64,000 bases of DNA from Phycisphaerae bacterium (GCA_013360585.1 JABWBH010000010.1:34629-98628); one strand, 5' to 3'. Shown: positions 1,481 through 61,051, numbered from the stretch's first letter. Numbers and translations are program-made. Notes: generated from the sequence alone by a model not told the origin.

Positions 1481-1503
1481 GCAGAGGTCGGCGCGCCTTC
1501 GCC

Positions 1504-3188: not shown

Positions 3189-3237
3189 CGTCGGATTCTT
3201 TCCGCGCGAGGCGTCATGCCGGCACAAGCCGCTTTCG

Positions 3238-8580: not shown

Positions 8581-8667
8581 GCGACGGCGCGCCCGCTACG
8601 ATAACCTCCGTGGGGGGCGGATGTGCCGCCGGGACCGGTCACGAGGACGTACATCAATCAGTTCGGC

Positions 8668-9261: not shown

Positions 9262-9268
9262 CGCGCCC

Positions 9269-9297
9269 TTGACATTGCCGGCCGTCCGGAGTAGTCT
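9269..9297 (+). promoter_or_regulatory. sigma70-like promoter of the his operon (TTGACA-17 nt-TAGTCT)
   Basis: TTGACA at 9269-9274, a 17-nt spacer, and TAGTCT at 9292-9297. It lies 10 nt upstream of the leader ATG. Confidence 0.55.
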
Positions 9298-9307
9298 GGA
9301 TTCCACG

Positions 9308-9370
9308 ATGCGGGTCAGGATGCTTTTTGTTGTTCATCATCATCATCACCACGGGGCCGTGGCCGGGTGA
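9308..9370 (+). CDS. hisL: his operon leader peptide MRVRMLFVVHHHHHHGAVAG (six consecutive His codons)
   Basis: The codons CAT CAT CAT CAT CAC CAC occupy 9335-9352 and the stop TGA is at 9368-9370. An alternative start at ATG 9320 gives 16 aa. The ORF lies directly upstream of hisG and is followed by attenuator helices. Confidence 0.7.
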   Translation: MRVRMLFVVHHHHHHGAVAG

Positions 9371-9403
9371 TGGTGTCGCCGTTTTAAGACGAGTAATCAC
9401 CAC

Positions 9404-9438
9404 CGACGCCGGCTCCTGCCGGCGTCGTTCGTTTTCCG
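9404..9438 (+). terminator. his attenuator terminator (10-bp GC stem, 4-nt loop, U-rich tail)
   Basis: CGACGCCGGC (9404-9413) pairs with GCCGGCGTCG (9418-9427). The loop is TCCT and the tail is TTCGTTTTCC. Confidence 0.7.
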
Positions 9439-9477
9439 CCGGATCAGGGGCCGCCGTCACAGACGACGGAGCCTTGA

Positions 9478-11450: not shown

Positions 11451-11452
11451 AA

Positions 11453-12046
11453 ATGAGTATGACGGTGCGGCGAGGCGAGTTCACACGAAGGACGCGGGAA
11501 ACGGACATTTCGGCGACGCTCATTCTCGACGGCGCCGTGGAGACGGACGTCCGCACGGGCCTTGAGTTCCTCGATCACTTGCTTACGGCGCTTGCCCGGC
11601 ATGCGCGCTTCGGGCTGAAGCTGTCATGCACGGGCGACCTGGGGGTGGACGATCATCACACCGCGGAGGATTGCGCCCTGGCGGTCGGAGCGGCACTCGA
11701 CCGGGCGCTGGGGGAGCGCCGCGGAATCGCGCGCTTCGGCTCCGCGTACGTCCCGCTGGATGAGGCGCTGGCGCGAGCGGTGGTGGATCTTTCCGGGCGG
11801 CCCTTTGCGCGGGTCCGGCTGGGGCTGCGCCGCGACCGTCTCGGAATGATGTCGTGCGAAAACGTCGGACACGTCTTGTCGTCGATGGCGACAGCGGCAC
11901 GGATGACGCTGCATGTGAAAGTGTTGGAAGGAGAGAACGATCATCACCGGGCGGAGGCGGCGTTCAAGGCGGTTGCTCTGGCTTTGCGCGAAGCGGTTCG
12001 TCGGGACGGCTCGGACGAAGTACCGAGCACGAAGGGGGTGCTCTGA
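11453..12046 (+). CDS. hisB: imidazoleglycerol-phosphate dehydratase (monofunctional, no phosphatase domain)
   Basis: The ATG at 11453 follows a GGGGGAGAG RBS. Shows RRTRETDI...DDHHTAEDCALA...GENDHHRAEAAFKA. Confidence 0.92.
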   Translation: MSMTVRRGEFTRRTRETDISATLILDGAVETDVRTGLEFLDHLLTALARHARFGLKLSCTGDLGVDDHHTAEDCALAVGAALDRALGERRGIARFGSAYVPLDEALARAVVDLSGRPFARVRLGLRRDRLGMMSCENVGHVLSSMATAARMTLHVKVLEGENDHHRAEAAFKAVALALREAVRRDGSDEVPSTKGVL

Positions 12047-12669
12047 TGCGATTTGTTCCGGTGACCGTGGTGCATACCGGCGTGGCGAACCTCGCGTCGG
12101 TGCAGGCGGGGCTGCGTCGCGCCGGAGCAGAACCGGTCGTGGCCGAGGATCCTCGCGCGGCTGAGGACGCGGAGCGCCTTGTGCTTCCGGGCGTCGGGGC
12201 GTTTGCGCCGGGGATGGCGAGACTGGCGGTGTGTGGCTGGGTCGAACCGCTGCGGAAGCGGATCGAGGCGGGCCGAGCGACGCTGGCGATCTGTCTCGGG
12301 ATGCAGTTTCTAGGCGGCAGCAGCGAAGAGAGCCGCGGAATCCCGGGACTGAGCGTATTCGCCGAAGGAGCAAAACGTTTCCCGGGGCATGTCCGCGTGC
12401 CGCAGATCGGCTGGAACGCCGTGACCTGCGGCGAGGGGCTCCGCTATCTGTGCGAGGGATATGCGTATTACGCCAACTCATATCGGTTGGACGCCGCTCC
12501 GCAGGGCTGGTGCGCGGCGTGGTCAGATCACGGAGGTCGCTTTGTCGCAGCGCTGGAGCGTGGAAGCGTGCTCGCCTGTCAGTTTCATCCGGAATTATCC
12601 GGGCCGTGGGGCATCGGACTCCTGCGGCGGTGGCTGGGAGCCGGGGGTTCGGAGACGGGATCGTGTTGA
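12046..12669 (+). CDS. hisH: imidazole glycerol phosphate synthase, glutamine amidotransferase subunit
   Basis: The ATG overlaps the hisB stop (TGATG). Shows LPGVGAF...AICLGMQ...ACQFHPE, a triad GATase. Confidence 0.9.
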   Translation: MRFVPVTVVHTGVANLASVQAGLRRAGAEPVVAEDPRAAEDAERLVLPGVGAFAPGMARLAVCGWVEPLRKRIEAGRATLAICLGMQFLGGSSEESRGIPGLSVFAEGAKRFPGHVRVPQIGWNAVTCGEGLRYLCEGYAYYANSYRLDAAPQGWCAAWSDHGGRFVAALERGSVLACQFHPELSGPWGIGLLRRWLGAGGSETGSC

Positions 12670-37596: not shown

Positions 37597-39633
37597 TTAT
37601 ACAAACACCCTTCGGTTGTACACGACCCACTCCAGCGACAACACCAGCAGCATCGCCAGCAGCACGTAAGGCCACGCCGGACGGTTGGTCGGCTGCTCCG
37701 TGGTCGTCGCCTGCACCGTCTCGGCGCCGATGGCGATCTTCGTGCGGGGCGCGACGTGGCTTTCCACCGGATCGAAAAGGTTCACTGCGAAGTGCTCATG
37801 CCCCGGCAGCGCCGGGTCCACGCGGTACAGACCCGTCGCGCGCGTCCGCGCGTAATGCACCGTGTTAAACCCCGCCGAGGGGACACGATCGGTCTGCCCG
37901 TCCGGGCGCGAGATCGCTACTTCCGCCGCCTTCGGAGGCACGGGGATCGTCACCGGCTGACCGGGCGGTGCGCCGAGCACGCCCTTGCTCATCAGCGATG
38001 AGGAGAGGAACTGCACGGCGTTCTGGAGAAAGACAATGAAATGCGGTTTCGTCACCCAGAAGGTGTTAAGCATCGGGTTGCCCGCGTCGTCCTGCACGAT
38101 CAATGAGAACGCGCAGATCAGGTACTGGCTGGCGCCGCGGGTCAGATGCGCCAGAACCGGTGACGACTGTCCCTTGATCAGCGGCGTCGCGTCCACCGGA
38201 ACCTTCAGGTCCAGCCACTCAAAGGCGTCCACCGCCGCTACGGGGACGTGCCGCAGCACCGGATGCGTGTCGTCCCAGTCGAAGAAGCGCTGATCGCGGA
38301 TCGGCGCGCCGGTGGTCACCCCGTCGATCTTCGGCGCCCCGCCCCAGAAGAAGTAATTCCCCTGCGGAAGCTTCGCGGTGGAGAAGGCGTCCATCACGAC
38401 GACGTCATAACGGCATCGCTCGCCGTCCATCACCTTCGCATCGCCCGCGTCCACCGCCGCCTCGAACGCCGACGGGAGCATCACCTCGAGCTGCACCGGC
38501 AGACAACCCAGCGCCTCCTCCAGGAGAAAATTGCCCGGCGTCACCAGCAGCAGACGCACGTTCCGCGGCGGCTCGACGACGCACCACGCCCGGTTGTCCG
38601 CCGTCAGCGCATCATCAACGCGCAGGCGGATTTCGACGACCCCGGCGGTGTTGAAGTTCACTTCGTCAAAGGCGATCGATTTGGCGCTGCCCGGCGTGGG
38701 CGGCGTGAGCACGGCGTCCGGCGCGCCCTCCGGCAGCACGAACCCCTCCAGCTCCACCCCCTGGTTGTCCACGAACGCGTCATTGATATACAGCGACGCA
38801 TCGAGGCGCACCGGTTCCGGTCCGAAATTGCGCAGGCTGGCGAACACCTGGAGCACGTCCGGCCGCTCATAATGCCGCTTCGTGTCCATCGAAAGGATGC
38901 CGACGTTGTCCGTCCGCGCTCCGACCGCCACCACCTCCATCGCCTCGACTTTCAGTCGCTCCACGGCGAGCCGGTCGCCGTCCGTGATCCGCCCGTCGGT
39001 GTAAAGGAGGACGGTGGCGTCCGGAGCGGCGCTGGTGGGCGCGACATCCTTGCCTTCTTCAGTGCCGCCGATAATCACGTTCTGCGAATACGCCTCCGCC
39101 AGCGACAGCGCCTCGCCCAGGGAGGTCGTGCTCTGCGTCGCTTCGATCGCGTCGATCCGCGACGAAAGCGCCCGCTTGTCCGTGTCGAACGATGCCGCCA
39201 CCGCCGCCCGGTCGCAGAACTCGATGACCATCGCCCGCGAACCCGCCGGCATGTCCGCCACCGCCTGCTTCGCCCGCTCCTTCGCCAGGTCCAGGCGCGT
39301 CTTGTTTCCTTCTTCGATGACGTTCATCGAAGCCGACTGATCCACCAGCAGGATCAGCGTCTGCTCACGCTGCTCCACCCGCTCACACATCGGGACGCCC
39401 AGGGCGAGCGCACCCGCCGTCAGCACCAGCAGTTGCAGGAACAACAGCAGGCTTTTGCGAAGCCGCTGAAAGGGCGAATTGACCTGCAAGTCTTCGACCG
39501 TCCGCTTCCACAGAAACGTGGACGGGACGACGTGCATCCGTCGCTTCAGCTTCAGGAAATACAGCGCCACCAGCGGCGGGATCGTCGCCGCCGCCGCAAT
39601 GCCGATCGCCGTTGGATTCAGAAAGTCAGGCAT
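37597..39633 (-). CDS. BatA-like membrane protein with VWA domain
   Basis: The aerotolerance-regulator N-terminal domain is MPDFLNPTAIGIAAAATIPPLVALYFLKLKRR. The MIDAS motif is LVDQSASM. Confidence 0.85.
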   Translation of the reverse strand: MPDFLNPTAIGIAAAATIPPLVALYFLKLKRRMHVVPSTFLWKRTVEDLQVNSPFQRLRKSLLLFLQLLVLTAGALALGVPMCERVEQREQTLILLVDQSASMNVIEEGNKTRLDLAKERAKQAVADMPAGSRAMVIEFCDRAAVAASFDTDKRALSSRIDAIEATQSTTSLGEALSLAEAYSQNVIIGGTEEGKDVAPTSAAPDATVLLYTDGRITDGDRLAVERLKVEAMEVVAVGARTDNVGILSMDTKRHYERPDVLQVFASLRNFGPEPVRLDASLYINDAFVDNQGVELEGFVLPEGAPDAVLTPPTPGSAKSIAFDEVNFNTAGVVEIRLRVDDALTADNRAWCVVEPPRNVRLLLVTPGNFLLEEALGCLPVQLEVMLPSAFEAAVDAGDAKVMDGERCRYDVVVMDAFSTAKLPQGNYFFWGGAPKIDGVTTGAPIRDQRFFDWDDTHPVLRHVPVAAVDAFEWLDLKVPVDATPLIKGQSSPVLAHLTRGASQYLICAFSLIVQDDAGNPMLNTFWVTKPHFIVFLQNAVQFLSSSLMSKGVLGAPPGQPVTIPVPPKAAEVAISRPDGQTDRVPSAGFNTVHYARTRATGLYRVDPALPGHEHFAVNLFDPVESHVAPRTKIAIGAETVQATTTEQPTNRPAWPYVLLAMLLVLSLEWVVYNRRVFV

Positions 39634-39823
39634 AGGAATTCGTGGATCATGAATCGTGGATCGCGGATCGGTCCTGCCTCTGCGCGTCTTTACCGGTTGC
39701 CTTTCCTGCTCGCCCCCGTCAGGCGGGCTACGCCCGCCGCCCTACCACCGCCCCCGTCGGACGGGCTACGCCCGCCACCCCGTCCCGCCCCACGATGCCA
39801 GGCCCCGTCGCCAGCTCCCTTTC

Positions 39824-40723
39824 CTACGCTACCAGTCCGCGACGGCGGAAGTAGCTCAACACGATCTGCTCGAAGGGCACATCGGTCCCCGTGAACAGGT
39901 AATTGATCCCACGGCGCGTGCAGAACTCCTTCAGCCCGCCGCAGTAGGCCTGAAGGTTTGCCTTGTACCGGTTCAGCAGCGCCCGGCTGACGGTCACGTC
40001 CGCCAGGTCGCCGTCCTCGACATCCTTCAGTTGCAGATCGCCCACCAGCGGCGGGTCGATCTCCTCGGGACTGAGCATCTGAATGCAATACAGATCATAT
40101 CGCCGCCCAAGAAGGAACTTCAGCCCCTGCTCATATCCTCCCTTTTCAAAGAAATCGCTCAGGAGGATGACGATGCCCGCCTGCGGATGACGGATCGCGA
40201 ACTGCTTGCACGCTTTCGACAGGTCGCTTGCCCCGTCGCACTCCGTCTGAGACAGAAAGGACAACAGCTTCGGAAGCGATCGCCGGCTGCGCAGGCCCGC
40301 CATCTCATATTGCAGTCCGCCGGCGTACGCATACACGCTCACGCGGTCAAGGTTGGCCAGTCCGATGTAGGAGATCGCCGCCGCGACGCGCCGCGCATAA
40401 AGCGTTTTGCTCGGCCGGCCCCAGTCCATGCTCTTCGACGTGTCCACGAGAATCGAGACGTGCAGATCCTCCTCCTCAAGGAAGAGTTTCAGGAAGAGCT
40501 TTTCAAGACGCGCGTAGATGTTCCAATCCACGTGACGAAGATCGTCCCCGACGACGTAGTTGCGGTAATCCGCAAACTCGACGGATTCGCCGCGCCGTCG
40601 GCTCCGACGCTCCCCGCGCATCTTGCCCATGAAAATCTTGCGCGAGACGAGCTGCAACTGCTCGATCTTTGCAATGAAGTCGGGCGTGAGGAGCGCGGCG
40701 GTGTCCGATGGAACCGTACTCAT
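39824..40723 (-). CDS. DUF58 domain-containing protein
   Basis: Shows GERRSRRRGESVEFADYRNYVVGDDLRHVDWN...ILVDTSKSM. Confidence 0.85.
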   Translation of the reverse strand: MSTVPSDTAALLTPDFIAKIEQLQLVSRKIFMGKMRGERRSRRRGESVEFADYRNYVVGDDLRHVDWNIYARLEKLFLKLFLEEEDLHVSILVDTSKSMDWGRPSKTLYARRVAAAISYIGLANLDRVSVYAYAGGLQYEMAGLRSRRSLPKLLSFLSQTECDGASDLSKACKQFAIRHPQAGIVILLSDFFEKGGYEQGLKFLLGRRYDLYCIQMLSPEEIDPPLVGDLQLKDVEDGDLADVTVSRALLNRYKANLQAYCGGLKEFCTRRGINYLFTGTDVPFEQIVLSYFRRRGLVA

Positions 40724-40840
40724 GATCCGCTCTTTCTCCCTAACCGTCTCTTGAAGAACTCACGATCCGCCTCGGTAAGACCGATTATTCTCGATTCAAT
40801 TCGCGTCCCGGAGGGACACACTGCCCTTTTCAACGGGCGG

Positions 40841-41857
40841 CTAAGCCGCCTCCGCCATCGTCGGCGTTTTCTCCAGGATCTGGCGCAGCACGTCGTCCGT
40901 CGTGACGCCCTCGGCCTCGCCCTCGAAGTTCAGCAACATGCGGTGGCGCATCGCCGGAAGGTACACCTTCCTGATGTCGCTGAAACTCGCGTTGAACCGT
41001 CCGTCCAGCAGCGCATACAGCTTCGCCCCCAGCGTCAGCGCCTGCGCCGCGCGCGGGCTGACGCCCCAGCGCACGTACTTGTTCGTGTCCTCGACCGCAT
41101 AAGGCCCGCCCGGGTGCGACGCCATCGCCAGGCGCACCGCGTAGTCCTGCACATGCGGCGCCATCACCACGCGGCGCACCAGGGTTTGCGCCCCGAGAAT
41201 CTCATCGCCCGTCATCACCCGCTCGATTTTCGGCACGTGCCCCGTCGTCGTGCGGTCCAGGATCGTCTTGATCTCGTCCTTCGTCGGATACTCGACGACG
41301 ATCTTGAACATGAACCGGTCGAGCTGCGCCTCGGGCAGCGGGTATGTCCCCTCCTGCTCGATCGGGTTCTGCGTCGCCATCACAAAGAACGGCGGCTTGA
41401 GTTTGTACGTCGTCCCCGCCACCGTGACGCTCTTTTCCTGCATCGCCTCGAGAATCGCCGATTGCGTCTTCGGCGTGGCGCGGTTGACCTCGTCGGCGAG
41501 CACGATCTGGGCGAAGATCGGTCCGCGCTGGAACTGGAAGTGCCGCCGACCCGTCTCGCTGTCCTCCATCACGATGTTCGTCCCGATGATGTCCGCGGGC
41601 ATCAGGTCTGGCGTGAACTGGATGCGCGAGAAGTCCAGTTGCACGGCTTCCGCCAGCGTGCGGATCAGGTACGTCTTGCCCAGCCCCGGAACGCCCTCGA
41701 GCAGCGCGTGTCCGCCGGTGAACAAACACGTCAGCACCCCGTCGACGATCTCGGTCTGTCCGACGATCGCCTTGCCGATCTCCTCCTTCAGCCGATTGAA
41801 CTTGCTCCGAAATTCCTGCGTCGCTTTTTCGACCGCGGGATCAATTTGCGTGGCCAT
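40841..41857 (-). CDS. MoxR family AAA+ ATPase
   Basis: Shows HALLEGVPGLGKT...RIQFTPDLMPADI...ILADEVNRATPKTQSALLEAM-like motifs. Confidence 0.92.
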   Translation of the reverse strand: MATQIDPAVEKATQEFRSKFNRLKEEIGKAIVGQTEIVDGVLTCLFTGGHALLEGVPGLGKTYLIRTLAEAVQLDFSRIQFTPDLMPADIIGTNIVMEDSETGRRHFQFQRGPIFAQIVLADEVNRATPKTQSAILEAMQEKSVTVAGTTYKLKPPFFVMATQNPIEQEGTYPLPEAQLDRFMFKIVVEYPTKDEIKTILDRTTTGHVPKIERVMTGDEILGAQTLVRRVVMAPHVQDYAVRLAMASHPGGPYAVEDTNKYVRWGVSPRAAQALTLGAKLYALLDGRFNASFSDIRKVYLPAMRHRMLLNFEGEAEGVTTDDVLRQILEKTPTMAEAA

Positions 41858-41929
41858 GTCGAACTCCAGTAAGTCGCCGGCTTCCCCCGCCGGCTCCTAG
41901 CTGCCGGCTGCACGTCGCCAGCCAGGTAT

Positions 41930-41988
41930 TCTACTTCTCTACTTCTTCTCTACTTCTCTACTTCTCTGCTTCTCTGCTTCTCTGCGTG
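41930..41988. repeat. tandem 8-mer array TCTRCTTC (about 7 units; GAAGYAGA on the coding strand) in the moxR 5' leader
   Basis: The units start at 41930, 41938, 41949, 41957, 41965, 41973 and 41981. There is a 3-nt insertion after unit 2, and the last unit is degenerate. Confidence 0.8.
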
Positions 41989-42065
41989 TCTGAAACGGTT
42001 CCTCGGACCCGGCGGAGCGCTTGAAGCTTGCCGCTCGAAGCGTGCCCCGACCGCTCGGCGCGCTC

Positions 42066-45000
42066 TTATTCCTTTTTGTCCAGCCCCTCTCTCGCCTTCT
42101 TCCTCGCCGCCAGCAAGCGTGACGTCGTCTCTTCCTGCGATTCCGCTTCGCCTTCGGCGGCGGGCTTTCGCTTTTTCTCCGCCGGCGGCGCGGCGCCGGC
42201 CTTCGCCCCGCCCAGAGCGTCCGCCAGATCCGCCGTCGGACCGCGCGGGGCTTCCTCCCCAAGGTCGAATTTCTTTTTCGCCGTCGTCGCGTCCGAAGGC
42301 GCCGCCTCCTCCTTCGCCACCCGACGCACGCCCGACGCCTTGTCCGCCGACAGATCCTCCTTCACCCGGTCGCGCGTGCCCCGAAGCTGCCCCAGCGAAG
42401 CCGTGCTGCGCTCCCCCGCCTCCGCCAGCGCCACCGACCCGTGCGTCACATACTCGAACAACGGACGGATGTACCGCCACCGCACCGACCAGCCGACGCC
42501 CTCGGCAATCAGCAGACTCAGCAGCCAACCCCTCACGCCGTCATACATCCACCCGAGCCCGACCAGCACGAACACCAGCACCAGAACTTCAATCACGATC
42601 GACAGCGCCAGCCAGTTCGCCAGCCGCCGCACCGCCACGTCCAGCAGGAAGATCGGCAGCAGCAGCCACCCCAGGACGAACTCCCACGCCGGTCGATGCG
42701 ACTCGGTCGGGGGTAGATCCTTGCGGAACACGTCTGCCGTCGCCGGGTTCAGCTCCAGCAGCTTCCCGCCCGTGAGGTCCGCGATCTGCGCCAAGAGCGG
42801 CATGTTCGTCTGAAGGTCGCGGTACTCCGCCGAATACGGGGCGGATACGCCGGCCTGGATCGCGCCGCGATGCTCCCCGCCCTCGAACACCTGCGACGTC
42901 ACGAGGTACTGCCCCATCTGGTCGACGTCGAACTCCGCCTCGTAATGCCCCGGACCGGTCTGGCGGAACTCCAGCTCGGCGTTCGTCCCGTCCGGACGGA
43001 TGACCTTGCTGCGGAACTGGAGGAAGTTCAGGTAGCTGGCGTCCTTGTCGAGGGCGTCTATGACCACGCGGCCCTTGTTCCCCTCGATGCGCGTGTGCGA
43101 GTCGAAGTTCGCGGGGGTCTCCTGCTTCATGCTCCAGCGGACGATCTGCGCCCACAATTTGGCGAACTTGCCCCACTCCGCCCAGCGCGTCCCCCAGCGA
43201 GGCCACTGTCCGCTGGTGAACGCCACCGTCTTGCCCAATTCGTATTGCCAGTGCGCCAGCACCGGGTCGTCCCCGTCGGCGGTGCGGCGGATCAGCGGGA
43301 GCTGAACGTGCGTGCTCTCCTTCGGCGAGGTCAGCACCAGCCCGCCCAGAGGCGGAATCTCCTCCGCACTCACGCCCGCCAGCAGTTCGCTGACGCCGTG
43401 GAACACCTGCGGCTGAAACGCTTCCTCCGTGATCAGCGAGCGCCGGACGACCTTGGATTCCTTCGTGAAAATCTGCGGAAGCTGGCTGGCCGTCTTCGGC
43501 GCGTAAAAGCGCCCGCCCGTCGATCGCGCGATCTTCTCCAGTTCCGCCGTCATCACGTGCATGCCCCAGCCGATGCCGATCGTACTGACCGTGATGCCCG
43601 CGTCCTTGTACGCTGCGATCAGCGAGTCCCGCGGCGGGCTGGGGTCGCCGTCGCTGATGATGATGACGTGGCGCTGCGCCGCGTCGCGCCCGCGACCCTT
43701 GACCAGCCCTTCGTACGCCATGTCCATCGTCGAGTCGAAGTCCGGCATGTCGCCGATCTGCATCCGGTCGATCCGGGCCTTCACCGCACCCTTGTTCGCG
43801 TTCTCCTGGAGCGGAACTTCCCAACTCACGCCGCCGGGCGAATACGAGTACGCCAGCACCCCCAGGTAGTCACGGGAGCTGACCGTGTCCACGCTCTTCT
43901 TCGCCATCTCCTTGCCCCAGTAATTCCCGCGCGGAATCTCGCAACTGTGGCAGATGATGACCAGCGCCCCGCGGGGAATCACCCGCTTGTGCTTGATCTC
44001 GAACGACACAGGCATCACTTCCTCGATCGGCGACCCGATCCACCCGCCCGCGCCGAAGCCTTCGTCCCCGCCGAGCATCACCAGACCGCCGCCCATGTCC
44101 CGCACGTACGACGCCAGATCGCGCATCTGGTCGTCCGTGAAGTCCGAAGCCGGCACGTTCGACAGGATCACGTTCGAGTAGCTTTGCAGCTTCAGCAGGT
44201 CGAGCGGCGCCGTCGCGGCCTCCCGCGCCTGCACGTCGATGTTCTCGCTCGTCAGCGCTTCGATCAGCGGCGCATCCGCTTCCAGATCCTTGCTCAGGAA
44301 CAGCACGCGGCTCGGACCCGACACAAACGAGAACGCCGTCGCGTTGTTGTTCAGCGACACGGCGTCCAGCGACTCATCGTCCGGCCGGAAGCGCGCCTCG
44401 AAAAGCTGCGGTCCCGCCTGGTTGACCGGCAGGCGCAGGAACATCGTGTTCGTTCCGGGCGTCAACTCAATGTGCGCATCCTCCGCCGGAATCTGCACGA
44501 GCTGCCCGTTCTGGTACACGTCGATCGTACCGGAGACGCGCCGGGACGTGTTTAGCACCATCCGGATCGGAACCTGCTCCCCCTTCTCCGCGTGCGTCGG
44601 CGCCATCATGCGATCGAAGTAGACGTCGTTGGTTTTCTGATAGCGCAGCGGGATGACGTCGATGCTGATCCCGTCCGCCCGCGCCCGACGCGCCTCCGTC
44701 AGCGCGTCGCCCAGATTCTCATTCCCGTCCGACAGCAGCACGATCCGCTTTGCCGCGTCATGCGGAAACATCGCCATCGAAAGGCGGATCGCCGCGGAAA
44801 TATCGGTGTGATCCGTGCGCGGCATCTGCGGAAGCCGCCCCGGCTCGATGTGATATCCCCCCTGCATCGGCAGTTGCTGAAGAAACGCCTGCCCCGCGAA
44901 GTCGATCATGCCCACGCGATCGTTCTTCGGAACGCGACCGGCGTCCGCCGCCTCCGCCAGGAACTTTTCCGCATCCGCTTGCGCCCCCTGCGTCGAGAAC

Positions 45001-45245
45001 GAGCGGTCCAGCAGGAACATCACCGTCACGTCCCGGTTCCGCCGGACGAACTGCACCTCCGCCAGGCACGCCGCCAGAAGCGCCACCACCACGCTCCGCA
45101 CCGCAAGCGCCAGCACCCGCCGCACCGGGTCCAGCCCCGCCAGACTCCGCAGCGACGCCAGCACGAGCAGCGGGATCAGCAGCAGCAACCACAGCCACTG
45201 CGGCTGATCGAAGGAGAGAGGAAGGGCCAGACCGAGGAGATTCAT
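42066..45245 (-). CDS. large BatA-like membrane protein with two VWA domains and a GATase1-like domain
   Basis: The ATG at 45245 gives MNLLGLALPLSFDQPQWLWLLLLIPLL. MIDAS motifs are LLDRSFST and IIISDGDPS. C-terminal TM helices are followed by a Lys/Ala/Glu-rich tail. Confidence 0.8.
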   Translation of the reverse strand: MNLLGLALPLSFDQPQWLWLLLLIPLLVLASLRSLAGLDPVRRVLALAVRSVVVALLAACLAEVQFVRRNRDVTVMFLLDRSFSTQGAQADAEKFLAEAADAGRVPKNDRVGMIDFAGQAFLQQLPMQGGYHIEPGRLPQMPRTDHTDISAAIRLSMAMFPHDAAKRIVLLSDGNENLGDALTEARRARADGISIDVIPLRYQKTNDVYFDRMMAPTHAEKGEQVPIRMVLNTSRRVSGTIDVYQNGQLVQIPAEDAHIELTPGTNTMFLRLPVNQAGPQLFEARFRPDDESLDAVSLNNNATAFSFVSGPSRVLFLSKDLEADAPLIEALTSENIDVQAREAATAPLDLLKLQSYSNVILSNVPASDFTDDQMRDLASYVRDMGGGLVMLGGDEGFGAGGWIGSPIEEVMPVSFEIKHKRVIPRGALVIICHSCEIPRGNYWGKEMAKKSVDTVSSRDYLGVLAYSYSPGGVSWEVPLQENANKGAVKARIDRMQIGDMPDFDSTMDMAYEGLVKGRGRDAAQRHVIIISDGDPSPPRDSLIAAYKDAGITVSTIGIGWGMHVMTAELEKIARSTGGRFYAPKTASQLPQIFTKESKVVRRSLITEEAFQPQVFHGVSELLAGVSAEEIPPLGGLVLTSPKESTHVQLPLIRRTADGDDPVLAHWQYELGKTVAFTSGQWPRWGTRWAEWGKFAKLWAQIVRWSMKQETPANFDSHTRIEGNKGRVVIDALDKDASYLNFLQFRSKVIRPDGTNAELEFRQTGPGHYEAEFDVDQMGQYLVTSQVFEGGEHRGAIQAGVSAPYSAEYRDLQTNMPLLAQIADLTGGKLLELNPATADVFRKDLPPTESHRPAWEFVLGWLLLPIFLLDVAVRRLANWLALSIVIEVLVLVFVLVGLGWMYDGVRGWLLSLLIAEGVGWSVRWRYIRPLFEYVTHGSVALAEAGERSTASLGQLRGTRDRVKEDLSADKASGVRRVAKEEAAPSDATTAKKKFDLGEEAPRGPTADLADALGGAKAGAAPPAEKKRKPAAEGEAESQEETTSRLLAARKKAREGLDKKE

Positions 45246-45286
45246 CAAAAGACTTGCACTCAAACGTTGCAGTATACGAACCTGAA

Positions 45287-45405: not shown

Positions 45406-46335
45406 TCACTCCGCCCGCACGACCTGGATCCGGCTGTTGAGTGAATCCACGACGTACACGCGCCCTCCCGGTCCGTAGATCGCTCCCCACGGAGCCCAGA
45501 GGCATCCCGGTTCGCGCCCGCTGCGGCCCCAGCTCTTGACGAACGTCCCATCCTTCCGGAACCACTGCAACCGGTTCGACCCGAACTCACACACCATCAC
45601 CATCTGACCGTCCGGCGTCAGCGACAGGTCATAAGGGTAATCCAGCAACCCTTCTTCCTTGCCGAAGCGCCCGAATACGCGGACCGCCTTTCCGCTTTCA
45701 TCAAACGCCACAATCCGGTGATTGCAGGCGTCCGCCACCCACAACACCCCGTCGTCGTCCACCTCGATCCCCGCCGGTCTGCGAAGTCGCTCCCCTTCGA
45801 CAGGGGTTTCGCCGATCGCCCCAACGTATTCCAGCGCCGGCGACCACTTCGTGATCCGGTCGTTTCCCTGATATTCGCTGACGTAAATGTAACCTTTCCG
45901 GTCGAACGTGACGGCCGTCGGCAGCTCCATCTGCCCCGGACCTCGACCCTGCTCCCCAAAATGTCCGACCGGACGACCGTCGCGATCAAAAATCATGACG
46001 CGGTGGTAATGCGTGTCCGCCACAAACAGACGCCCGTCCGGATGCACCGCAAGACCCACCGGCTTACCGTGCGCCGTCTCGGGCATTGTCCACTCCAGCT
46101 CATACACGCCCTCCGCGGAGAAGCGCTGCACGCGCCCCGCTTTGTCCACGACGAAGACCGATCCTTCAGGTTCCGCCGCGATCGCCCGCGGGTAGCTGAA
46201 CTCCGCGGGACCGCGACCGACGCCCCCGAATACAGCAACCACCCCGTTGTGGCTCAGCGCGTCCGGCTCGCATCCGGCCAACATCACGCCGCATGCCGCC
46301 ACGCAAACCCCGCGAATCCACCTCCGCCACGTCAT
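45406..46335 (-). CDS. NHL repeat lipoprotein (six-bladed beta-propeller type)
   Basis: Lipobox MLAGC. It has repeated ...P.G.AVD..G.iyVaD..n.Ri..f... units (YPRAIAAEPEGSVFVVDKAGRVQRF, etc.). Confidence 0.8.
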   Translation of the reverse strand: MTWRRWIRGVCVAACGVMLAGCEPDALSHNGVVAVFGGVGRGPAEFSYPRAIAAEPEGSVFVVDKAGRVQRFSAEGVYELEWTMPETAHGKPVGLAVHPDGRLFVADTHYHRVMIFDRDGRPVGHFGEQGRGPGQMELPTAVTFDRKGYIYVSEYQGNDRITKWSPALEYVGAIGETPVEGERLRRPAGIEVDDDGVLWVADACNHRIVAFDESGKAVRVFGRFGKEEGLLDYPYDLSLTPDGQMVMVCEFGSNRLQWFRKDGTFVKSWGRSGREPGCLWAPWGAIYGPGGRVYVVDSLNSRIQVVRAE

Positions 46336-50069: not shown

Positions 50070-51902
50070 TCAGGAGTCGCCGTCGGCCTTTTCTTCGTCG
50101 TCGCTTTTTCCGACGGGCGCCGCTTCCTCGGTCTTGTCGTTCTCGCCGTCCGTCGCCTTCTGCCCCTCCAGCGCCTTCTGCACCGTCGAGAAGAACGCCT
50201 TCACGGACTTCTGATACTGCCGGGGGATGCGGTCGCGGGTCACGGCGTCGGTCGCTTCGCGCTCCTCCGCGGTGACGATCTCCGCCAGCGCCTTGCTCGC
50301 CTGACCCTTCACCTGCTCGCCGTCGATGAGGAACTGTCCGACGATCGCGCCCTTGCGCGTCTCCACCTTCTGCCGCTCGGTCTTGAACGCCACCGCCGTC
50401 TGCTGCTCTTCCGCAAGGCCTCCGCGACCCTGACCCGGTTTTTGACCCATCCCGCCGTTGCCCTGCTTGCCGCCACCCTGACACTGCCCCGTTCCGTTGC
50501 ACCCGGAGCATTTCCCGCCGTTGCGCTGCCCCGTGCCCTGACACTGCGAGCAGGAGTTCATACTGTCCTTCGCATCCTGAAGGTCGGACAACGTCGAGTT
50601 GAGCTGGTCCATCTCAGTCTGAAGCTGCTCCAGCTCGCTGAGCTGGTCCGACGCGGCGGAAAGCCCCGCCGCCGCCTCCGACATCGACCCCGGCGAGTTG
50701 CACTGCGACGCCTGCTTCATCGCCTGCGAAAGCTGCTTCATCCCCTGGCTGGCGGACTGACGCTGCGCAAGCTGCTTCGCCATCTGCTCGATCTGCTGCT
50801 GGTTGTACCCCTGCTGCTCCAGCGATTTCTTGACCTGATCGAGATCCTGCTTGCTGAGGTTCTCCAGCATGCGCTGAAGGTCTTCCGGCTTGATGCCCGC
50901 CTGCTGGAGTTTCTGCTCCAGCTCCTTGTTCTGCGCAAGCTGCTCAAGCTGCTTTGAGAGGTCTTCGAGCTGCTTGCTGAGCTGCTCGGCCATCTCCTTG
51001 TCTTCGTCGTGCTTAAGCGTGGCGAGCTGCTCCTGAAGCTTCTCGATCTGCTCCTGCGCCTCCTTGAAATCCCCCTCCGCCAACGATTTCGACAGTTCGT
51101 TCGCCGGCGTGTCCGCCTCCTGCGGAACTTTCAACCCCCGCATCATCTTCTGCATCTGCTCGACCTTGTCGTATCCCGGATCGTCGAGCTTATCCTTCAC
51201 CGCGTCCGCGAGACTGTCGATCTTCTTCTGCGCTTCGTGCCGGATCGCGTCGGGCTTGTCCAGCGGCGCGGCCGGCGCTTCCGCCAGCCGCTCCATCTCC
51301 TCCTTCAACTCCTCCAGCGCGGGGTTGTCTTCGGCCTTGCGGATGATCTCCTGAAACTGCTTCTTGACCGTCGCCTGCACCTGCTCGACCGCCGCCACCT
51401 GCACCGGATCCGCGGGCTTCTTCTCCTCGCCCAGCAGTCCTGCCGGAACCAGCAGCGACAACGCCGCCGCCAGCGACGCCCCCGCCGCGTAATTCGCCGA
51501 GCGCGGGTACGTGAACCGGATGTGACGGCGCGCCGACACCGCCGAACTCGCCCGCTCCGCGTCCGACACGACGGCCTGCGCAAAAGGATCGTCAGACGTT
51601 CGGCAATAAAAGCTGCTGCTGAGACGCTCTCGCAATCCCGCCGCCTCATCCAGCGCCGCCGCCGCCGACTCCAGACTCCGGCGCTCCGCCAGCGACCAGA
51701 TCAACGACGCCAGCACCGCGATCGCCGCCAGCGCCGCCGCCGACAGGTCCAGCGGGATTGCCGCCTCCGTCAGTCGCTGCGTCACCGTCAGTCCCGCAAA
51801 ACCGACCGCCGCCCCGCACAAGCACCAGAACACCCGGCTCATCCAGCCGTTCAGCCAGATCCGCCGCCGCGCCACGTGAACCTGCCGTTCGAAGTGACTC
51901 AT
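50070..51902 (-). CDS. membrane-anchored Gln/Glu/Lys-rich coiled-coil protein with DnaJ-type CxxCxGxG zinc-finger pair
   Basis: The ATG at 51902 follows an AGGAG RBS. It has two N-terminal TM helices and a long coiled coil. CSQCQGTG and CSGCNGTG lie at 50481-50552. Confidence 0.6.
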   Translation of the reverse strand: MSHFERQVHVARRRIWLNGWMSRVFWCLCGAAVGFAGLTVTQRLTEAAIPLDLSAAALAAIAVLASLIWSLAERRSLESAAAALDEAAGLRERLSSSFYCRTSDDPFAQAVVSDAERASSAVSARRHIRFTYPRSANYAAGASLAAALSLLVPAGLLGEEKKPADPVQVAAVEQVQATVKKQFQEIIRKAEDNPALEELKEEMERLAEAPAAPLDKPDAIRHEAQKKIDSLADAVKDKLDDPGYDKVEQMQKMMRGLKVPQEADTPANELSKSLAEGDFKEAQEQIEKLQEQLATLKHDEDKEMAEQLSKQLEDLSKQLEQLAQNKELEQKLQQAGIKPEDLQRMLENLSKQDLDQVKKSLEQQGYNQQQIEQMAKQLAQRQSASQGMKQLSQAMKQASQCNSPGSMSEAAAGLSAASDQLSELEQLQTEMDQLNSTLSDLQDAKDSMNSCSQCQGTGQRNGGKCSGCNGTGQCQGGGKQGNGGMGQKPGQGRGGLAEEQQTAVAFKTERQKVETRKGAIVGQFLIDGEQVKGQASKALAEIVTAEEREATDAVTRDRIPRQYQKSVKAFFSTVQKALEGQKATDGENDKTEEAAPVGKSDDEEKADGDS

Positions 51903-52175
51903 GACGAAGACTCCTGCCGGAGGCCGGTCCCCCGGCGCAGCCTGCAACAAACCGCGCGTCAAACCCCGCTTTCACGTTGATATCGTCTCAGGGGACGCTC
52001 AACGATCTTATCGGTGATTCTAGCCCGATCCGCACCTCCGAACAACGCGAATCCACCGAAGCGACGATCCGGGCAGAACCGCAGCCCGCCCGCAAGGCGG
52101 CTTTCCACCTCTTTGACGATCCGCAGACTCCGGCGTTAACCCTCTCGGAAGCCAAGCCGCACAATCCCGGACAAC

Positions 52176-52988
52176 TCAGAACCGCGAATACGCCCGATCG
52201 TCGGCGCTGAGGAACCCGTGTGCGGGCCAATTCAGCAGCGCCTCGTTTTCCGGGCGTGCCCCGGGCTTGCGCGACGGCGTCCGAATCATGTCCCCGTGAC
52301 CGTCGGCGTAAGCGATATTCGTCGCTCCCCGGTGACGGAACGCCTGTGCCCCCGCATGTACCGTGCTCTCCGCCACGCTCGCGTCCAGCGGGGCACGCAT
52401 GAACTTGTTCGCTCCCGCCCGGTAACCGCCGTCGCCCGCCAGCGCCGCTGACGACGGCGACCGCACCTGCGCCGTCATTGCTGGTTCCTCGCCCATCCCG
52501 AGATACTCCTGCTCGCCCTGTCCGCGCCCGAGATAGGTCGTGTTGTAGTTGTACCCGGTGTAAGGATCACCCGTCGTCATGCTCGGTCCCTCGTACGACG
52601 GACACTGCTGCACCGCTCCACCGTCCGCGTACTCCCAGATCAGACCCGCCGACGCTTGTTTCGGGCTGCCCCAGGGCGTTCGCGTGTCCCAGCACACGAA
52701 CGCCTCCTCTCGCTCGTCCACATACTGCGCGATCGGATACCGATCGGAATAAACATGCGCATACGTCTGCACCGCCGTCCCGATCTGCCGCAGGTTCGAG
52801 GCGCACTGCACCGCGGCCGCCTGCTTCCGCGCCTTCGACAGCGACGGCAGCAGCATCGCCGCCAGCAGCGCCAGAATCGCGATCACCACGAGAAGCTCAA
52901 TCAACGTGAACGCCCGCGAGGCATCGTCGCATCCCCGATCCCGCCGCGCCGCCCTCCACCTCTCCTTGGGTCGTTCAGATTTCTTCAT
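52176..52988 (-). CDS. DUF1559 protein with prepilin-type N-terminal cleavage/methylation signal
   Basis: Shows [25 protein letters not shown], and the C-terminal H-X9-DG signature reads [13 protein letters not shown]. Confidence 0.85.
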
Positions 52989-53020
52989 TCTTCACACTTC
53001 ATTCCGCATTCTTCATTCAC

Positions 53021-53986
53021 TTACATCGGCCCGGACCAGCCCTCGTACACCCGCACGTAGTCCTCCAGGTCGATGTCTTCGTCTTCGTCCAGGTCCGCCG
53101 CCCGGCAATCACAGGCTTCGATCTCTCCTCCCCCTCCGGAGAAGCACCGCTGCAACCGAGCGAAATCCGCCAGATCCGCATCGCCGTCGAGATCGATGTC
53201 TCCCGAAACGGCGAAACCCGGGGCGACGTCTGCCAGCCCGTCCACCTCTCCCAGCGCCTCGCTCGTCAGATACACATACTGAACCGACTCAAACGGCGTC
53301 GCCGCCAGATCGAACCCCGCCCCGCCGCCCGAACCGCGGTACCACGCGATCGCCTCTCCCGCGGACAGCCCGATGAAATCCGTCTCCACCAACGCCGGGT
53401 CCACCGGTCGCGTGAAATCCGATGGCGCGCCCCAGGCGTGCGCGCAGGAGTCCCACAGATACGCATTCGTCGGGAAAAGACCGTCCCCGTAAGGCCCGTC
53501 CGCGAACACATGCCACGCCTCGGGGTTGCTCTCCGGGTCGCCCTCGCCCGTCGGGCTGACCGCGACGATCACCGGTTCGCGGAAAAGTCCGCCGACGATC
53601 GTGACGGCGTCCATGTTCGTGTCGGGGTCGATGCCGGTGTCCGCAATGAAGAACGCATTGCCGAACACCAGCAGATCGATCCCGAAAGGATTCCGCGGAT
53701 CATCCTCGACGGGATCGTCGAAGCGCACCTTGACGAATTCCCCGCGCCGCAGCGTCAGCAGCGTCTTGCGCCCCGACTCGTCACGGTTCAGCGGTGCAAC
53801 GACCACCGACGCACGAAAGGTCTGCCCCGAGAAAGGGTCGATGAAGGTCCGCGTCGGTTCGCCCAGCGCCGCGTTCGGATCATTGTAAAGCCCGCGCCCG
53901 TCCAGCGACGGGCTGAACTCCACGATGGTGTCCGCCCACGGATCAGACGCAACCGCCGCCGCAATCAACATCAGTGCAGTCAACAT
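53021..53986 (-). CDS. hypothetical exported protein with C-terminal acidic dockerin/EF-hand-like repeats
   Basis: Signal peptide MLTALMLIAAAVASD. The C-terminus contains GDIDLDGDADLADF...DLDEDEDIDLEDY. Confidence 0.55.
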   Translation of the reverse strand: MLTALMLIAAAVASDPWADTIVEFSPSLDGRGLYNDPNAALGEPTRTFIDPFSGQTFRASVVVAPLNRDESGRKTLLTLRRGEFVKVRFDDPVEDDPRNPFGIDLLVFGNAFFIADTGIDPDTNMDAVTIVGGLFREPVIVAVSPTGEGDPESNPEAWHVFADGPYGDGLFPTNAYLWDSCAHAWGAPSDFTRPVDPALVETDFIGLSAGEAIAWYRGSGGGAGFDLAATPFESVQYVYLTSEALGEVDGLADVAPGFAVSGDIDLDGDADLADFARLQRCFSGGGGEIEACDCRAADLDEDEDIDLEDYVRVYEGWSGPM

Positions 53987-54013
53987 GACGGTCCGCTCCT
54001 TTCTTTCCGTAAA

Positions 54014-55360
54014 TCACGGACACGTCACCGTCACCGCCGCGCCGCACTCCGCCGGATCGGTCAACGCGACCGCGTGCTCTCCCGAGTTCACGCCTTGCCA
54101 CGTCCACCGCGCCTTCCGCCCGTTCACCGCTCCCTGATGCGGCACGCCGTCCAGCGTTGCGTACAAGACGACGCCGTCTTGCGCTTCTCCGCTCAGCCGC
54201 GCCCGCGCCCGCACCCGACCGGATGCGCCGCACCGCGCCCGGAACACCCGCACGTCATCGCACGTCACGCCCGATCCCACGGTGTACACGTACGCCAGCG
54301 AGGTCCACGCATCGCGCACGAGGAGTTCGCCCGGCGCCGCGTTGTGCGTCGCGTCGTACCAGTTCGAGTCGTTCGCCCCGTCCGGATCGACCCGGCGCAC
54401 CTCGTCCGGGTCGTCGTTGTCCGCCGGACCTTCGCCACGCCAGGCCGCCTCGATCGCCTCCGCCGCGACGAGACCCAGCGCGTCCACGTCGCCCGTCGCG
54501 AAATCACCGCCGCCCGTGTGAAGGTTGCCGCTCGTGTCAAAGCCCAGCGATGCCGCCGACAGCACGTCGCAGACCTGCACGCCCTCGGCCTCGTAGTCGA
54601 TCGGCGAGCCGCCTTCGACCGCCTCGCGCCAGCGCGCGTAAGTAAACCCCTTCACCCAGCCCGTCTCGCTCGGTCCGTTGAGCTTCAAACCGGTCCCGGT
54701 GTAAAGGTTGCCCGCGGCGTCGAACGCCACCCCGGCCGAGAAGGGACCGCCGGTCATGAACCGAGGATTCACGGGCGCCTTCGGATCGCTCGTCGTGTCC
54801 AGCAGCGTCATCTCGCCCGCGTCGCGGATCGCCAGGTGAACGTCATCGAACCACTCCGCGTCGTAGTGCCCGACGAAAAACCACGTCCCCGCCAGCGTCT
54901 GCACGTCGAACACGCCCACCGCGTCGAAACTGTTCCCCACCGCGAAGCGCGTGCCGTCCGGCGAAACCCGCACGAACGCCGGATACGACACCGGACCGCC
55001 CTCTCCCGGCAGCGCCCCCCGAGGCTCGAAATGCCGCGACCCCGGCGAGGTCTCGATGTACACATCGTTGGCCGCGACGACGATCACGCGCCCGTCCGGA
55101 TGAACGTCAAACATGTCCTGAAACGCCCCCGCCGAGGGCAGGGGCACGGCCCCGCGCAGACCGTATCCGCCGATGTCACTGGCCAACGCCTTCGCCCCGA
55201 TCAACGAGACAATCCCCGCAATCGCAATGAGACCCCGCTGCAAAACCGAACCGTGCCCGCCAGGAAGCGGGTGCTTCCAGCCGCTCAAACAAAAGCGGTA
55301 ACTGGGAACAAGCGAACAAACTGAGGTGAAGCGCCGCAAGGCGCGGCTTCCGATCGACAT
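54014..55360 (-). CDS. hypothetical exported protein, first gene after the cobalamin riboswitch
   Basis: The ATG at 55360 is preceded by AAGGAGGAA. It has the hydrophobic segment LIAIAGIVSLIGAKALA. The beta-rich repeats (HPDGRVIVVAAND, SPDGTRFAVGNS, DAAGNLYTGTG, DTSGNLHTGGG) suggest a propeller-like fold. Confidence 0.6.
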   Translation of the reverse strand: MSIGSRALRRFTSVCSLVPSYRFCLSGWKHPLPGGHGSVLQRGLIAIAGIVSLIGAKALASDIGGYGLRGAVPLPSAGAFQDMFDVHPDGRVIVVAANDVYIETSPGSRHFEPRGALPGEGGPVSYPAFVRVSPDGTRFAVGNSFDAVGVFDVQTLAGTWFFVGHYDAEWFDDVHLAIRDAGEMTLLDTTSDPKAPVNPRFMTGGPFSAGVAFDAAGNLYTGTGLKLNGPSETGWVKGFTYARWREAVEGGSPIDYEAEGVQVCDVLSAASLGFDTSGNLHTGGGDFATGDVDALGLVAAEAIEAAWRGEGPADNDDPDEVRRVDPDGANDSNWYDATHNAAPGELLVRDAWTSLAYVYTVGSGVTCDDVRVFRARCGASGRVRARARLSGEAQDGVVLYATLDGVPHQGAVNGRKARWTWQGVNSGEHAVALTDPAECGAAVTVTCP

Positions 55361-55402
55361 GCGTTCCTCCTTCTTGTGCCGGGGGCGCCAAACCCGGGCG
55401 CC

Positions 55403-55447
55403 CGAAAAACAAAAAAATCCCGGCGCTTCGCGGAGCAAAGCGCCGGG
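55403..55447 (-). terminator. intrinsic terminator forming the riboswitch expression platform
   Basis: On the minus strand, CCCGGCGCUU-N9-AAGCGCCGGG forms a 10-bp stem (55419-55447), followed by AUUUUUUUGUUUUUCG. Confidence 0.75.
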
Positions 55448-55559
55448 ACCGCACGTCTCGGAAGGAAACGCCGAACCCGCCGCGCACGTGTGCGACGGAA
55501 CGGCGCCCGATCGGGCTGGTCGCGGCCGCCGTCCCCGAGGCGCCACGTCCGAACGCGGT

Positions 55560-55753
55560 GGCAGGCAGGTCTTCTGGCTGACGGATCACTCTACTTGCCG
55601 GGCCTTCTCCGCGCGAGCTTCACAAGCCTCAAAACCTGCAAAGCCCCGCCCGAATGGCGCATCCGGCTTTCGTCCCCGATCACAGCGGCGGGTCCACGGT
55701 GGATTCGCACCACCTTCCCTCTTCGAGCGCGGCATCGCGCCCGACCTGCTACC
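55560..55753 (-). promoter_or_regulatory. cobalamin (B12) riboswitch aptamer
   Basis: The minus strand carries GGGAAGGUGGUGCGAAUCCACCGUGGACCCGCCGCUGU and the B12 box AGCCAGAAGACCUGCC. GGUAGCAGGUC and GACCUGCCUGCC form the closing helix. Confidence 0.85.
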
Positions 55754-55815
55754 GCAAAGGATTCACTTGTCACGTTTGCGGCCCCACGCGCCGAAGCCGC
55801 CAAGACCGCATCGAC

Positions 55816-55843
55816 AGACTAACCCCGTCTCCTGCGCCGTCAA
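55816..55843 (-). promoter_or_regulatory. candidate promoter of the riboswitch transcript (TTGACG-16 nt-TAGTCT on minus strand)
   Basis: On the plus strand these read CGTCAA (55838-55843) and AGACTA (55816-55821). The -10 hexamer is the same as in the his promoter. Confidence 0.4.

Positions 55844-58960: not shown

Positions 58961-61051
<2,091 letters not shown>

Follow-up and report, generated by a model that had tools for sequence, protein, structure and literature searches.

What is the function of three genes for exported proteins that lie behind a cobalamin riboswitch in a 64,000-nucleotide (64-kb) stretch of DNA from a Phycisphaerae bacterium (GCA_013360585.1, JABWBH010000010.1:34629-98628; the stretch at its full length is referred to as the window)? 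Most microbes need vitamin B12 (cobalamin) but few make it, so that B12 scavenging shapes microbial communities, and to our knowledge the uptake machinery outside Proteobacteria and gut Bacteroidota is largely uncharacterised. No B12 uptake route of Planctomycetota is described in the literature searched, and searches for the cobalamin riboswitch with DUF1559, Planctomycetes, PEP-CTERM or pilin returned nothing relevant. Comparative genome analysis and structure prediction suggest, with a probability that we put at about 0.75, that the three genes (A, B, and C, encoding 448, 321, and 270 amino acids) form a B12-repressed module for corrinoid capture or uptake. An earlier interpretation made from the DNA alone (the sequence-only reading) had proposed an undescribed B12 acquisition module, and this proposal gains support from the score of the riboswitch, its recurrent linkage to homologs of these genes and the BtuH-like predicted fold of protein B; the functional assignments rest on genomic association and on one fold comparison. 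Surface capture of B12 by proteins encoded behind a riboswitch is an already known kind of system. New here are two unannotated protein families in Planctomycetota and relatives, an operon without BtuB, and a tight pairing with a pilin-like protein, and by comparative genomics the locus defines a widespread riboswitch-controlled module, with relatives of all three genes behind B12 riboswitches in well over 100 further genomes and metagenome contigs.

Riboswitch and Organization of the Operon

The whole window was searched with the covariance models of Rfam (cmscan), in which the gathering score of the Cobalamin family RF00174 is 31.5 bits. The minus-strand match upstream of gene A (Table 1) scored 104.7 bits (E 3.7e-25) over model positions 1-189 of 189, by which the riboswitch proposed in the sequence-only reading held up, and RF00174 was the sole Rfam family to exceed its gathering score in the window. 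Both the core pattern of the family (GGGAA...GGUG..AAUCC..CCCGC..CUGU) and its B12 box pattern (AGCCAG.AGACCUGCC) were found: on the minus strand the aptamer core, GGGAAGGUGG...CUGU, occupies 55719-55682 and the B12 box, AGCCAGAAGACCUGCC, occupies 55579-55564, while the P1 strands 55753-55743 and 55571-55560 form the outer helix of the Rfam alignment. The positions previously given for core, box, and closing helix match the minus-strand sequence, and judged from its sequence the element is an ordinary member of RF00174.

Approximately 100-150 nucleotides (nt) 3' of the aptamer, a terminator scan revealed a 16-pair stem with 10 G-C pairs (55450-55416, minus strand) followed by TTTTTGTTTT (U7GU5), in agreement with the terminator hairpin and U-tract described before. 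This hairpin was present in every minimum-free-energy fold computed, unconstrained and constrained; that of a 95%-identical locus (L001) has a folding energy of -29.6 kcal/mol, and terminators of the type CCCGG...CCGGGAUUUUUUU separate the riboswitch from gene A in roughly one third of related loci (~13 of 40). Such an arrangement would be consistent with ligand-dependent termination by the riboswitch of the window.

Downstream of the terminator lie the three genes, also on the minus strand and with intergenic gaps of 27 and 32 nt, as read earlier and confirmed from the coordinates of the open reading frames (ORFs), and the gene order A-B-C is kept in nearly all Planctomycetota loci. The coordinates given before for gene A also stand, its length of 449 amino acids does not, because the stop codon had been counted. 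Signal peptides, PEP-CTERM or dockerin-like tails, and a prepilin motif argue for an extracytoplasmic location of the products. Protein C is identical to one encoded in a Phycisphaerae metagenome-assembled genome (MAG), and Planctomycetota bacterium BroJett003 matches the locus with 95% identity; by these identities the source of the window is a Phycisphaerae-like planctomycete.

Gene A and Its Linkage to Cobalamin Riboswitches

The AlphaFold model of the exported protein A (predicted local distance difference test score, pLDDT, 86.7) has a beta-propeller at residues ~60-360 followed by a small beta-sandwich, in line with the propeller-like repeats noted in the sequence-only reading. No Pfam or NCBIfam family was detected, either for the protein or for the alignment members scanned, and the best fold matches in the PDB were WD40-type propellers of a generic kind only. 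Forty-one homologs of A were found, some of them fused to a B-like domain (P0011, P0015, P0033, P0034, P0037, and P0039 are natural A+B fusions).

Regarding the linkage to riboswitches, taking one genome per species gave 45 loci with A homologs, 44 of which had evaluable upstream sequence. In 40 of these 44 loci an upstream RF00174 match in the orientation of the homolog reached the gathering score. Three of the four exceptions have hits below the threshold (24-30 bits) at the expected place; in the fourth, a Kofleriaceae locus (L018), two A paralogs precede a riboswitch and a gene for a TonB-dependent receptor. When the loci were clustered at 70% identity to remove duplicates, the linkage was seen in 39 of 40 clusters, so that the recurrence of B12 riboswitches upstream of homologs of this gene, suspected earlier, is now documented. 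Since related loci share ancestry these counts are of non-independent events; the linkage holds down to ~30% protein identity and across phyla, with riboswitch-linked loci in Planctomycetota, Myxococcota, a Pseudomonadota MAG, and a bin labelled Vicinamibacteraceae. Distant linked homologs (28-32% identity) are present in Minicystis rosea, a Polyangiaceae MAG, and the Pseudomonadota MAG, and genes near them encode a BtuF-like Peripla_BP_2 protein, a riboswitch-controlled TonB-dependent receptor, methylmalonyl-CoA mutase and, by motif only, riboswitch-controlled nrd-like proteins.

Protein A resembles BtuG, the seven-bladed beta-propeller lid of the B12 receptor BtuB (PF16819), in being an exported propeller encoded by the first gene behind a B12 riboswitch and in being fused to an H-like domain in some lineages. 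Unlike BtuG, it has no TonB-dependent partner nearby in the examined Planctomycetota loci (the window and the Phycisphaerales contig L046), the exception elsewhere being the Kofleriaceae locus, and it is dispensable, its place being taken by another protein in most operons that contain B and C. PF16819 was matched by none of 26 A-family members at E up to 1, and from sequences and models A could not be linked specifically to BtuG.

Several further observations concern gene A and its surroundings. The N-terminus of A (...SRALRRFTS...) contains a twin-arginine-like motif followed by a 28-residue insertion ahead of the hydrophobic segment, the insertion being missing from a 78%-identical homolog (P0003), and may be a twin-arginine translocation signal with an unusual spacer. 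In Minicystis rosea (CP016211.1, L039) a second cobalamin riboswitch lies directly 3' of the A-like gene and precedes genes for a collagen-repeat/DUF7151 lipoprotein and for a 414-amino-acid lipoprotein without a family, with a BtuF-like Peripla_BP_2 gene further downstream (features at 7214-7398, 7584-9197, 9204-10448, and 11330-12388). Locus L042 has one riboswitch ahead of apparent B12-independent ribonucleotide reductase genes (motif only) and a second ahead of the A-like gene, followed by genes for methylmalonyl-CoA mutase (confirmed by Pfam) and a MeaB-like GTPase (motif only); these features (921-1133, 1193-4797, 4833-5025, and 7733-11019) would constitute a compact B12 regulon island. 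The contig L046, which carries a 60%-identical A-B-C operon, also has an amino-acid permease gene preceded by a c-di-AMP riboswitch (78 bits), as well as a tRNA-Sec gene (5482-5654 and 56-150).

Genes B and C as the Conserved Core

The distribution of homologs indicates that the conserved core of the system is B and C, not A. A metagenome scan gave 80 loci with B homologs, only five of which have an A-like gene; in about 50 of the 80 an exported PEP-CTERM protein of ~220 amino acids, here called p221, is encoded in place of A between the riboswitch and B (for example L050, 2864-3529, and L073, 5300-5962), and it is fused to B in forms of ~700 amino acids (L051, L132, and L134). No Pfam family beyond the anchor was found in p221, and no similarity to A, B, or C was found for p221 or for the extension of the long B forms. 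From its position p221 is probably an accessory component of corrinoid capture.

Riboswitches at these loci were detected with a covariance model of the 5' core (R1) built from 39 riboswitches found at related loci, which in the window scored 75.1 bits at the true site and 13.5 bits (E 0.068) at its only other match. Among the 54 loci in which 1.5 kb or more of DNA preceded B, 53 had an R1 core upstream of B in the same orientation, one of the 53 (L067) being doubtful with its riboswitch ~6 kb away; de-duplication at 70% identity left 36 of 38. Rfam recovered all of the 12 lowest-scoring R1 hits with scores that reached the gathering score, and the R1-negative B locus that was re-tested (L061) was negative with Rfam too. 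Of the 68 loci whose downstream DNA was long enough to judge, 61 have a C-like DUF1559 gene next to B in the same orientation.

The best homologs of C (54-69% identity) are encoded on contigs shared with A and B homologs. The idea that only these closest homologs belong to the module was rejected on a sample of six C homologs at 44-50% identity, one of which (P0216, in L049) was uninformative as its contig starts at the gene: all five informative homologs (44-47% identity) lie in riboswitch-controlled operons, so that the module reaches further. Among these five operons, four encode a B-like domain, four a Cys_rich_CWC/DUF5522 protein, and two (L050 and L132) a BtuF-like Peripla_BP_2 protein, which is also encoded in metagenome locus L115. 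Two architectures were therefore observed, riboswitch-A-B-C as in the window, and riboswitch-p221-B-C, sometimes followed by the CWC/DUF5522 gene and the BtuF-like gene.

The small Cys_rich_CWC and DUF5522 protein is encoded just 3' of the C-like gene in riboswitch operons (L050, 5863-6255; L051, 5894-6277; L132, 6773-7216; L134, 6834-7184; also L073, L076, L091, L115, and L118), in several followed by the BtuF-like Peripla_BP_2 gene, and its recurrence beside C-like and BtuF-like genes suggests that this family is also B12-related. Three loci whose operons have two B-like genes show two cobalamin-riboswitch cores ~300 nt apart on the same strand upstream (L114, 2369-2471 and 2676-2780; L116, 1612-1716 and 1917-2021; L117, 3417-3521 and 3722-3826), which are possible tandem cobalamin riboswitches.

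Predicted Fold of Protein B

Regarding protein B, the predicted model (pLDDT 91.5) was compared with 350,000 PDB chains using Foldseek, and the only matches below E 1e-3 were 8blw_B, which is BtuG1 (BtuGH) of Bacteroides thetaiotaomicron (E 3.6e-6), and 7biz_A, which is BtuH2 (E 2.9e-4), with low template modelling (TM) scores of 0.30 and 0.21, respectively. The next matches were carbohydrate-binding modules and lectins at E 1.5e-2 or weaker. The extra ~250 residues of BtuG1 are a BtuH domain (PMC10404256), and in BtuH2 the C-terminal globular domain binds B12 (PMC8941943). The natural fusions of A to B mirror BtuGH and so provide independent support, from domain architecture, for a BtuH-like B; the fusions of p221 to B are a further parallel to BtuGH. 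The B core has no Pfam or NCBIfam family, and its profile, which collected 1782 clusters at 50% identity (E up to 1e-3), revealed no sequence homology to BT1488, BT1490, or BT1956 among PDB sequences. The core of B is thus predicted to have a BtuH-like fold and is probably, though given the low TM-scores and the lack of a sequence signal not provably, homologous to BtuH. The statement in the sequence-only reading that none of the three genes resembles known B12 proteins is accordingly limited to the level of sequence, where it holds; at the level of predicted fold B resembles BtuH. Residues of BtuH2 that contact B12 are reportedly Gln333, Asn399, Phe401, His476, Tyr510, Trp511, and Trp577.

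The C-terminal tail of B scores 17.4 bits against PF00404 (cutoff 22.9), a family matched by 19 of 39 B-family members, and the B-family profile matches solved dockerins among PDB sequences (E 1.4e-7 to ~1e-3). The acidic, Ca-binding-like end noted earlier is thus a dockerin/EF-hand-like tail by profile comparison, a PEP-CTERM anchor taking its place where it occurs in orthologs of B.

Compared with BtuH and BtuGH of B. thetaiotaomicron (PDB 7BIZ and 8BLW), B is likewise exported, encoded behind a B12 riboswitch, partnered with and sometimes fused to a beta-propeller (as in the BtuGH fusion; PMC10404256), and rich in conserved acidic and Asn residues, reminiscent of the structural Ca/Na sites described for BtuH (PMC8941943). 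In contrast to BtuH, it has no detectable sequence similarity to that protein and no Cys lipobox, the anchor being a dockerin-like tail or PEP-CTERM; and unlike in the Bacteroides loci there is no adjacent BtuB, the constant neighbor of B being the pilin-like DUF1559 protein, which is missing in Bacteroides. Outside Bacteroidota, published homologs of BtuH are limited to three Firmicutes (PMC8941943; PMC13616437), and the BtuG/BtuH/BtuJ surface relay, to which the module would be similar in function, was, as of September 2026, described in Bacteroidota only, with few Firmicutes homologs of BtuH and a wider range of DUF4465 members (PMC13616437; PMC13398666). BtuJ/DUF4465 proteins (PF14717) are exported, riboswitch-linked B12 binders with a jelly-roll, also present in Planctomycetota (PMC13398666; bioRxiv 10.1101/2025.07.01.662609); unlike these, A, B, C, and p221 do not match PF14717. 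If the assignment of B is right, the module spreads the BtuH-like binding fold far outside the gut, and the B domain is a possible new scaffold for B12 capture.

The same features of B bear on two other explanations of the operon. In the first, A, B, and C would be adhesins or fibers of a B12-starvation program, attaching the cell to B12 producers or particles and binding no vitamin. Typical elements of adhesins include dockerin, PEP-CTERM, propeller, and CBM-like beta-sandwich folds, pilins often serve attachment, and carbohydrate-binding modules and lectins come next after the BtuH-domain proteins among the fold matches of B; the best and only significant matches are nevertheless B12-binding domains, some operons encode a BtuF-like binding protein, and the Myxococcota homologs of A adjoin riboswitch-controlled TonB receptors and BtuF-like genes, which is a transport context and not one of adhesion. 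We consider an adhesion program very unlikely. In the second explanation the ligand would be something short of a complete corrinoid, either cobalt or a different B12-related precursor, taken up to feed de novo or salvage synthesis. Genes for cobalt transporters and cob/cbi genes are likewise among the targets of cobalamin riboswitches, and the many invariant Asp, Asn, and Glu residues of B could bind metal. However, known cobalt uptake systems are integral membrane transporters, none of which is encoded here, no cob or cbi genes were detected in the window or in the loci whose neighborhoods were scanned, and the acidic residues fit the structural Ca/Na sites of BtuH (PMC8941943), making this explanation highly improbable.

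A number of results do weigh against a corrinoid capture module. Unconstrained and constrained folding of the expression platform gave no convincing anti-terminator pairing as an alternative to the terminator. When all PDB sequences were searched with the B-core profile, BtuH chains did not appear even with E values of up to 10 allowed, and PF16819 and PF14717 were not matched by any family member scanned; BtuG was missing from the top 50 PDB fold matches of A, and the A profile retrieved only generic propellers from PDB sequences, providing no sequence link to BtuG. Finally, genes for a TonB-dependent receptor, an ABC importer, or pilus assembly were not found in the examined Planctomycetota loci (the window and L046).

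Protein C and the Proposed Route of Corrinoid Uptake

Protein C has a class III signal peptide with cleavage predicted between Ala and FTLIELLVV and Glu at position +5, and its N-terminus matches the prepilin models PF07963 (N_methyl; 31.3 versus 21.2 bits) and TIGR02532 (26.6 versus 16.3 bits). The match to PF07596 (DUF1559) of 23.7 bits against a cutoff of 23.3 covers profile positions 2-41 only; many homologs of C have a precomputed PF07596 match, and the H-X9-DG motif is present in C and in 115 of 120 homologs, with C scoring 13.2 against the TIGR04294 cutoff of 19. By these profiles and motifs C is a bona fide DUF1559/H-X9-DG protein, which agrees with the earlier assignment as a prepilin-type protein of this family. 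DUF1559 is heavily expanded in Planctomycetota and Verrucomicrobiota, and more than 7900 homologs were significant in one search. The literature search yielded no assigned function for DUF1559 and no paper linking it to B12. The present locus offers a first concrete functional clue. Protein C shares the class III signal peptide, Glu+5, the N-terminal DUF1559 region, and the H-X9-DG motif with the DUF1559 prepilin-type proteins of Planctomycetota, Verrucomicrobiota, and Lentisphaerota, and differs from DUF1559 at large in that its subfamily is consistently linked to B12 riboswitches.

A cleavage motif was found in 82 homologs of the C subfamily (P0162-P0281), and position -1 relative to the predicted prepilin cleavage site is Ala in 58 of them and Gly in 23. 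Classical type IV prepilins have Gly at this position, and Ala at -1 may reflect a different peptidase specificity or a lack of cleavage.

The capture module could operate as follows. When cobalamin is plentiful, the riboswitch would bind it and the terminator would halt transcription; when cobalamin is scarce, read-through into A, B, and C would occur. Proteins A and B (or p221) would be exported through their signal peptides to the cell surface or envelope, B being kept at the surface by its dockerin-like Ca-binding tail or, in orthologs, by the PEP-CTERM anchor, and A would take the place of BtuG, elsewhere being fused to B or replaced by the small PEP-CTERM protein. Both A and B might bind corrinoids with high affinity. 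Protein C, anchored in the inner membrane by its N-terminal helix or built into a short pseudopilus, would then take the corrinoid bound by B through the envelope toward a BtuF/ABC-type importer, doing in Planctomycetota the job of the TonB-dependent BtuB. The analysis shows the riboswitch and terminator, the arrangement of the operon, the conserved linkage of riboswitches to A, B, and C, the similarity in fold, and the fusions; corrinoid binding, the location of the proteins, and the mode of action of C are the steps that we infer. Like BtuB-BtuFCD of Escherichia coli, the system is under cobalamin riboswitch control and includes a BtuF-like Peripla_BP_2 protein in some variant operons, but in contrast to it the operon of the window encodes no TonB-dependent receptor or ABC transporter.

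The last part of this scheme, in which a pilin or pseudopilus of a DUF1559 subfamily carries the corrinoid inward from a BtuH-like binder and so replaces BtuB, by analogy with competence pseudopili and DNA, is tentative and in our view doubtful as it stands. If true, the transport by a pilin-like partner would be a new import mode for a large cofactor in diderm cells. It would likewise be the first uptake of a micronutrient that depends on a pilin, and would give a DUF1559 protein a function for the first time.

An unlikely alternative, though one that also involves acquisition of B12, is that C is a substrate-dedicated pseudopilin of a system resembling the type II secretion system (T2SS) that exports A and B, while the corrinoid enters through a BtuB-type receptor or porin and BtuFCD encoded elsewhere. 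The N-terminal helix of C aligns with GspG/H/I/J, ComG, and PilA pilins (NCBIfam, PDB), A and B need to cross the outer membrane for work at the surface, and the BtuF-like protein of some operons indicates that the normal inner-membrane route exists. Against this, C as a whole is remote from secretion pseudopilins, with 34.4 bits for the GspG model TIGR01710 against a cutoff of 88.85, confined to the N-terminal helix, and full-length scores far below the cutoffs for the other T2SS pseudopilin models; pseudopilins are normally encoded with their machinery and not one per substrate; and the pairing of C with B in 61 of 68 loci, together with its distinct B12-linked DUF1559 subfamily, points to a specific partner rather than to a general component of secretion.

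Coordinates and Other Features of the Window

The features of the operon and its upstream region are listed in Table 1. The small hairpin, ribosome-binding site (RBS), and start codon of the sequence-only reading were recovered, the hairpin in one computed fold and the ATG of gene A at 55360 by the N-termini of close homologs (MSIGSR...). The promoter suggested further upstream fared less well: the TTGACG-16-TAGTCT sequence is present where it was placed, but its -10 element fits only three of six positions and a sigma-70 promoter scan made no call there.

Table 1. Features of the cobalamin riboswitch operon, in coordinates of the window.
Feature	Coordinates	Strand	Basis
Promoter-like pair TTGACG-16 nt-TAGTCT	55816..55843	-	Weak; sequence present only
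Cobalamin riboswitch aptamer (RF00174)	55547..55764	-	Rfam, 104.7 bits; 5'-core model R1, 75.1 bits
Intrinsic terminator, 16-bp stem and U7GU5	55403..55450	-	Terminator scan and minimum-free-energy folds
Small GC hairpin	55383-55403	-	Sequence; appears in one computed fold
RBS AAGGAGGAA	55364-55372	-	Read from sequence
Gene A, exported 448-aa beta-propeller and C-terminal beta-sandwich	54014..55360	-	ORF; AlphaFold model
Gene B, exported 321-aa protein, ~240-aa core and Ca-binding tail	53021..53986	-	ORF; signal peptide; model
Gene C, 270-aa prepilin-type DUF1559/H-X9-DG protein	52176..52988	-	Pfam/NCBIfam and motif

Next to gene C on the minus strand, a gene for a protein of 630 amino acids (50070-51962) was considered as a fourth member of the module and rejected, since its conservation does not extend beyond the two closest relatives. 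The protein, to which no family was assigned, has a membrane segment at its N-terminus and a long region rich in Glu, Lys, and Gln that resembles a coiled coil, as well as a Cys-rich stretch of the CxxCxGxG type. A thiC gene is present at 58961-60970 (minus strand; ThiC_Rad_SAM, 623 bits); thiC is commonly under the control of thiamine pyrophosphate (TPP) riboswitches, and no TPP riboswitch reached the Rfam gathering score in the window. A Bat/MoxR-type cluster, whose members are BatA-VWA, DUF58, and MoxR AAA_3 proteins and a VWA/GATase1-like protein of 1065 amino acids, adjoins an NHL-repeat propeller gene (37597-45263 and 45406-46335, minus strand), and in locus L133 a MoxR-like AAA gene follows the C-like gene.

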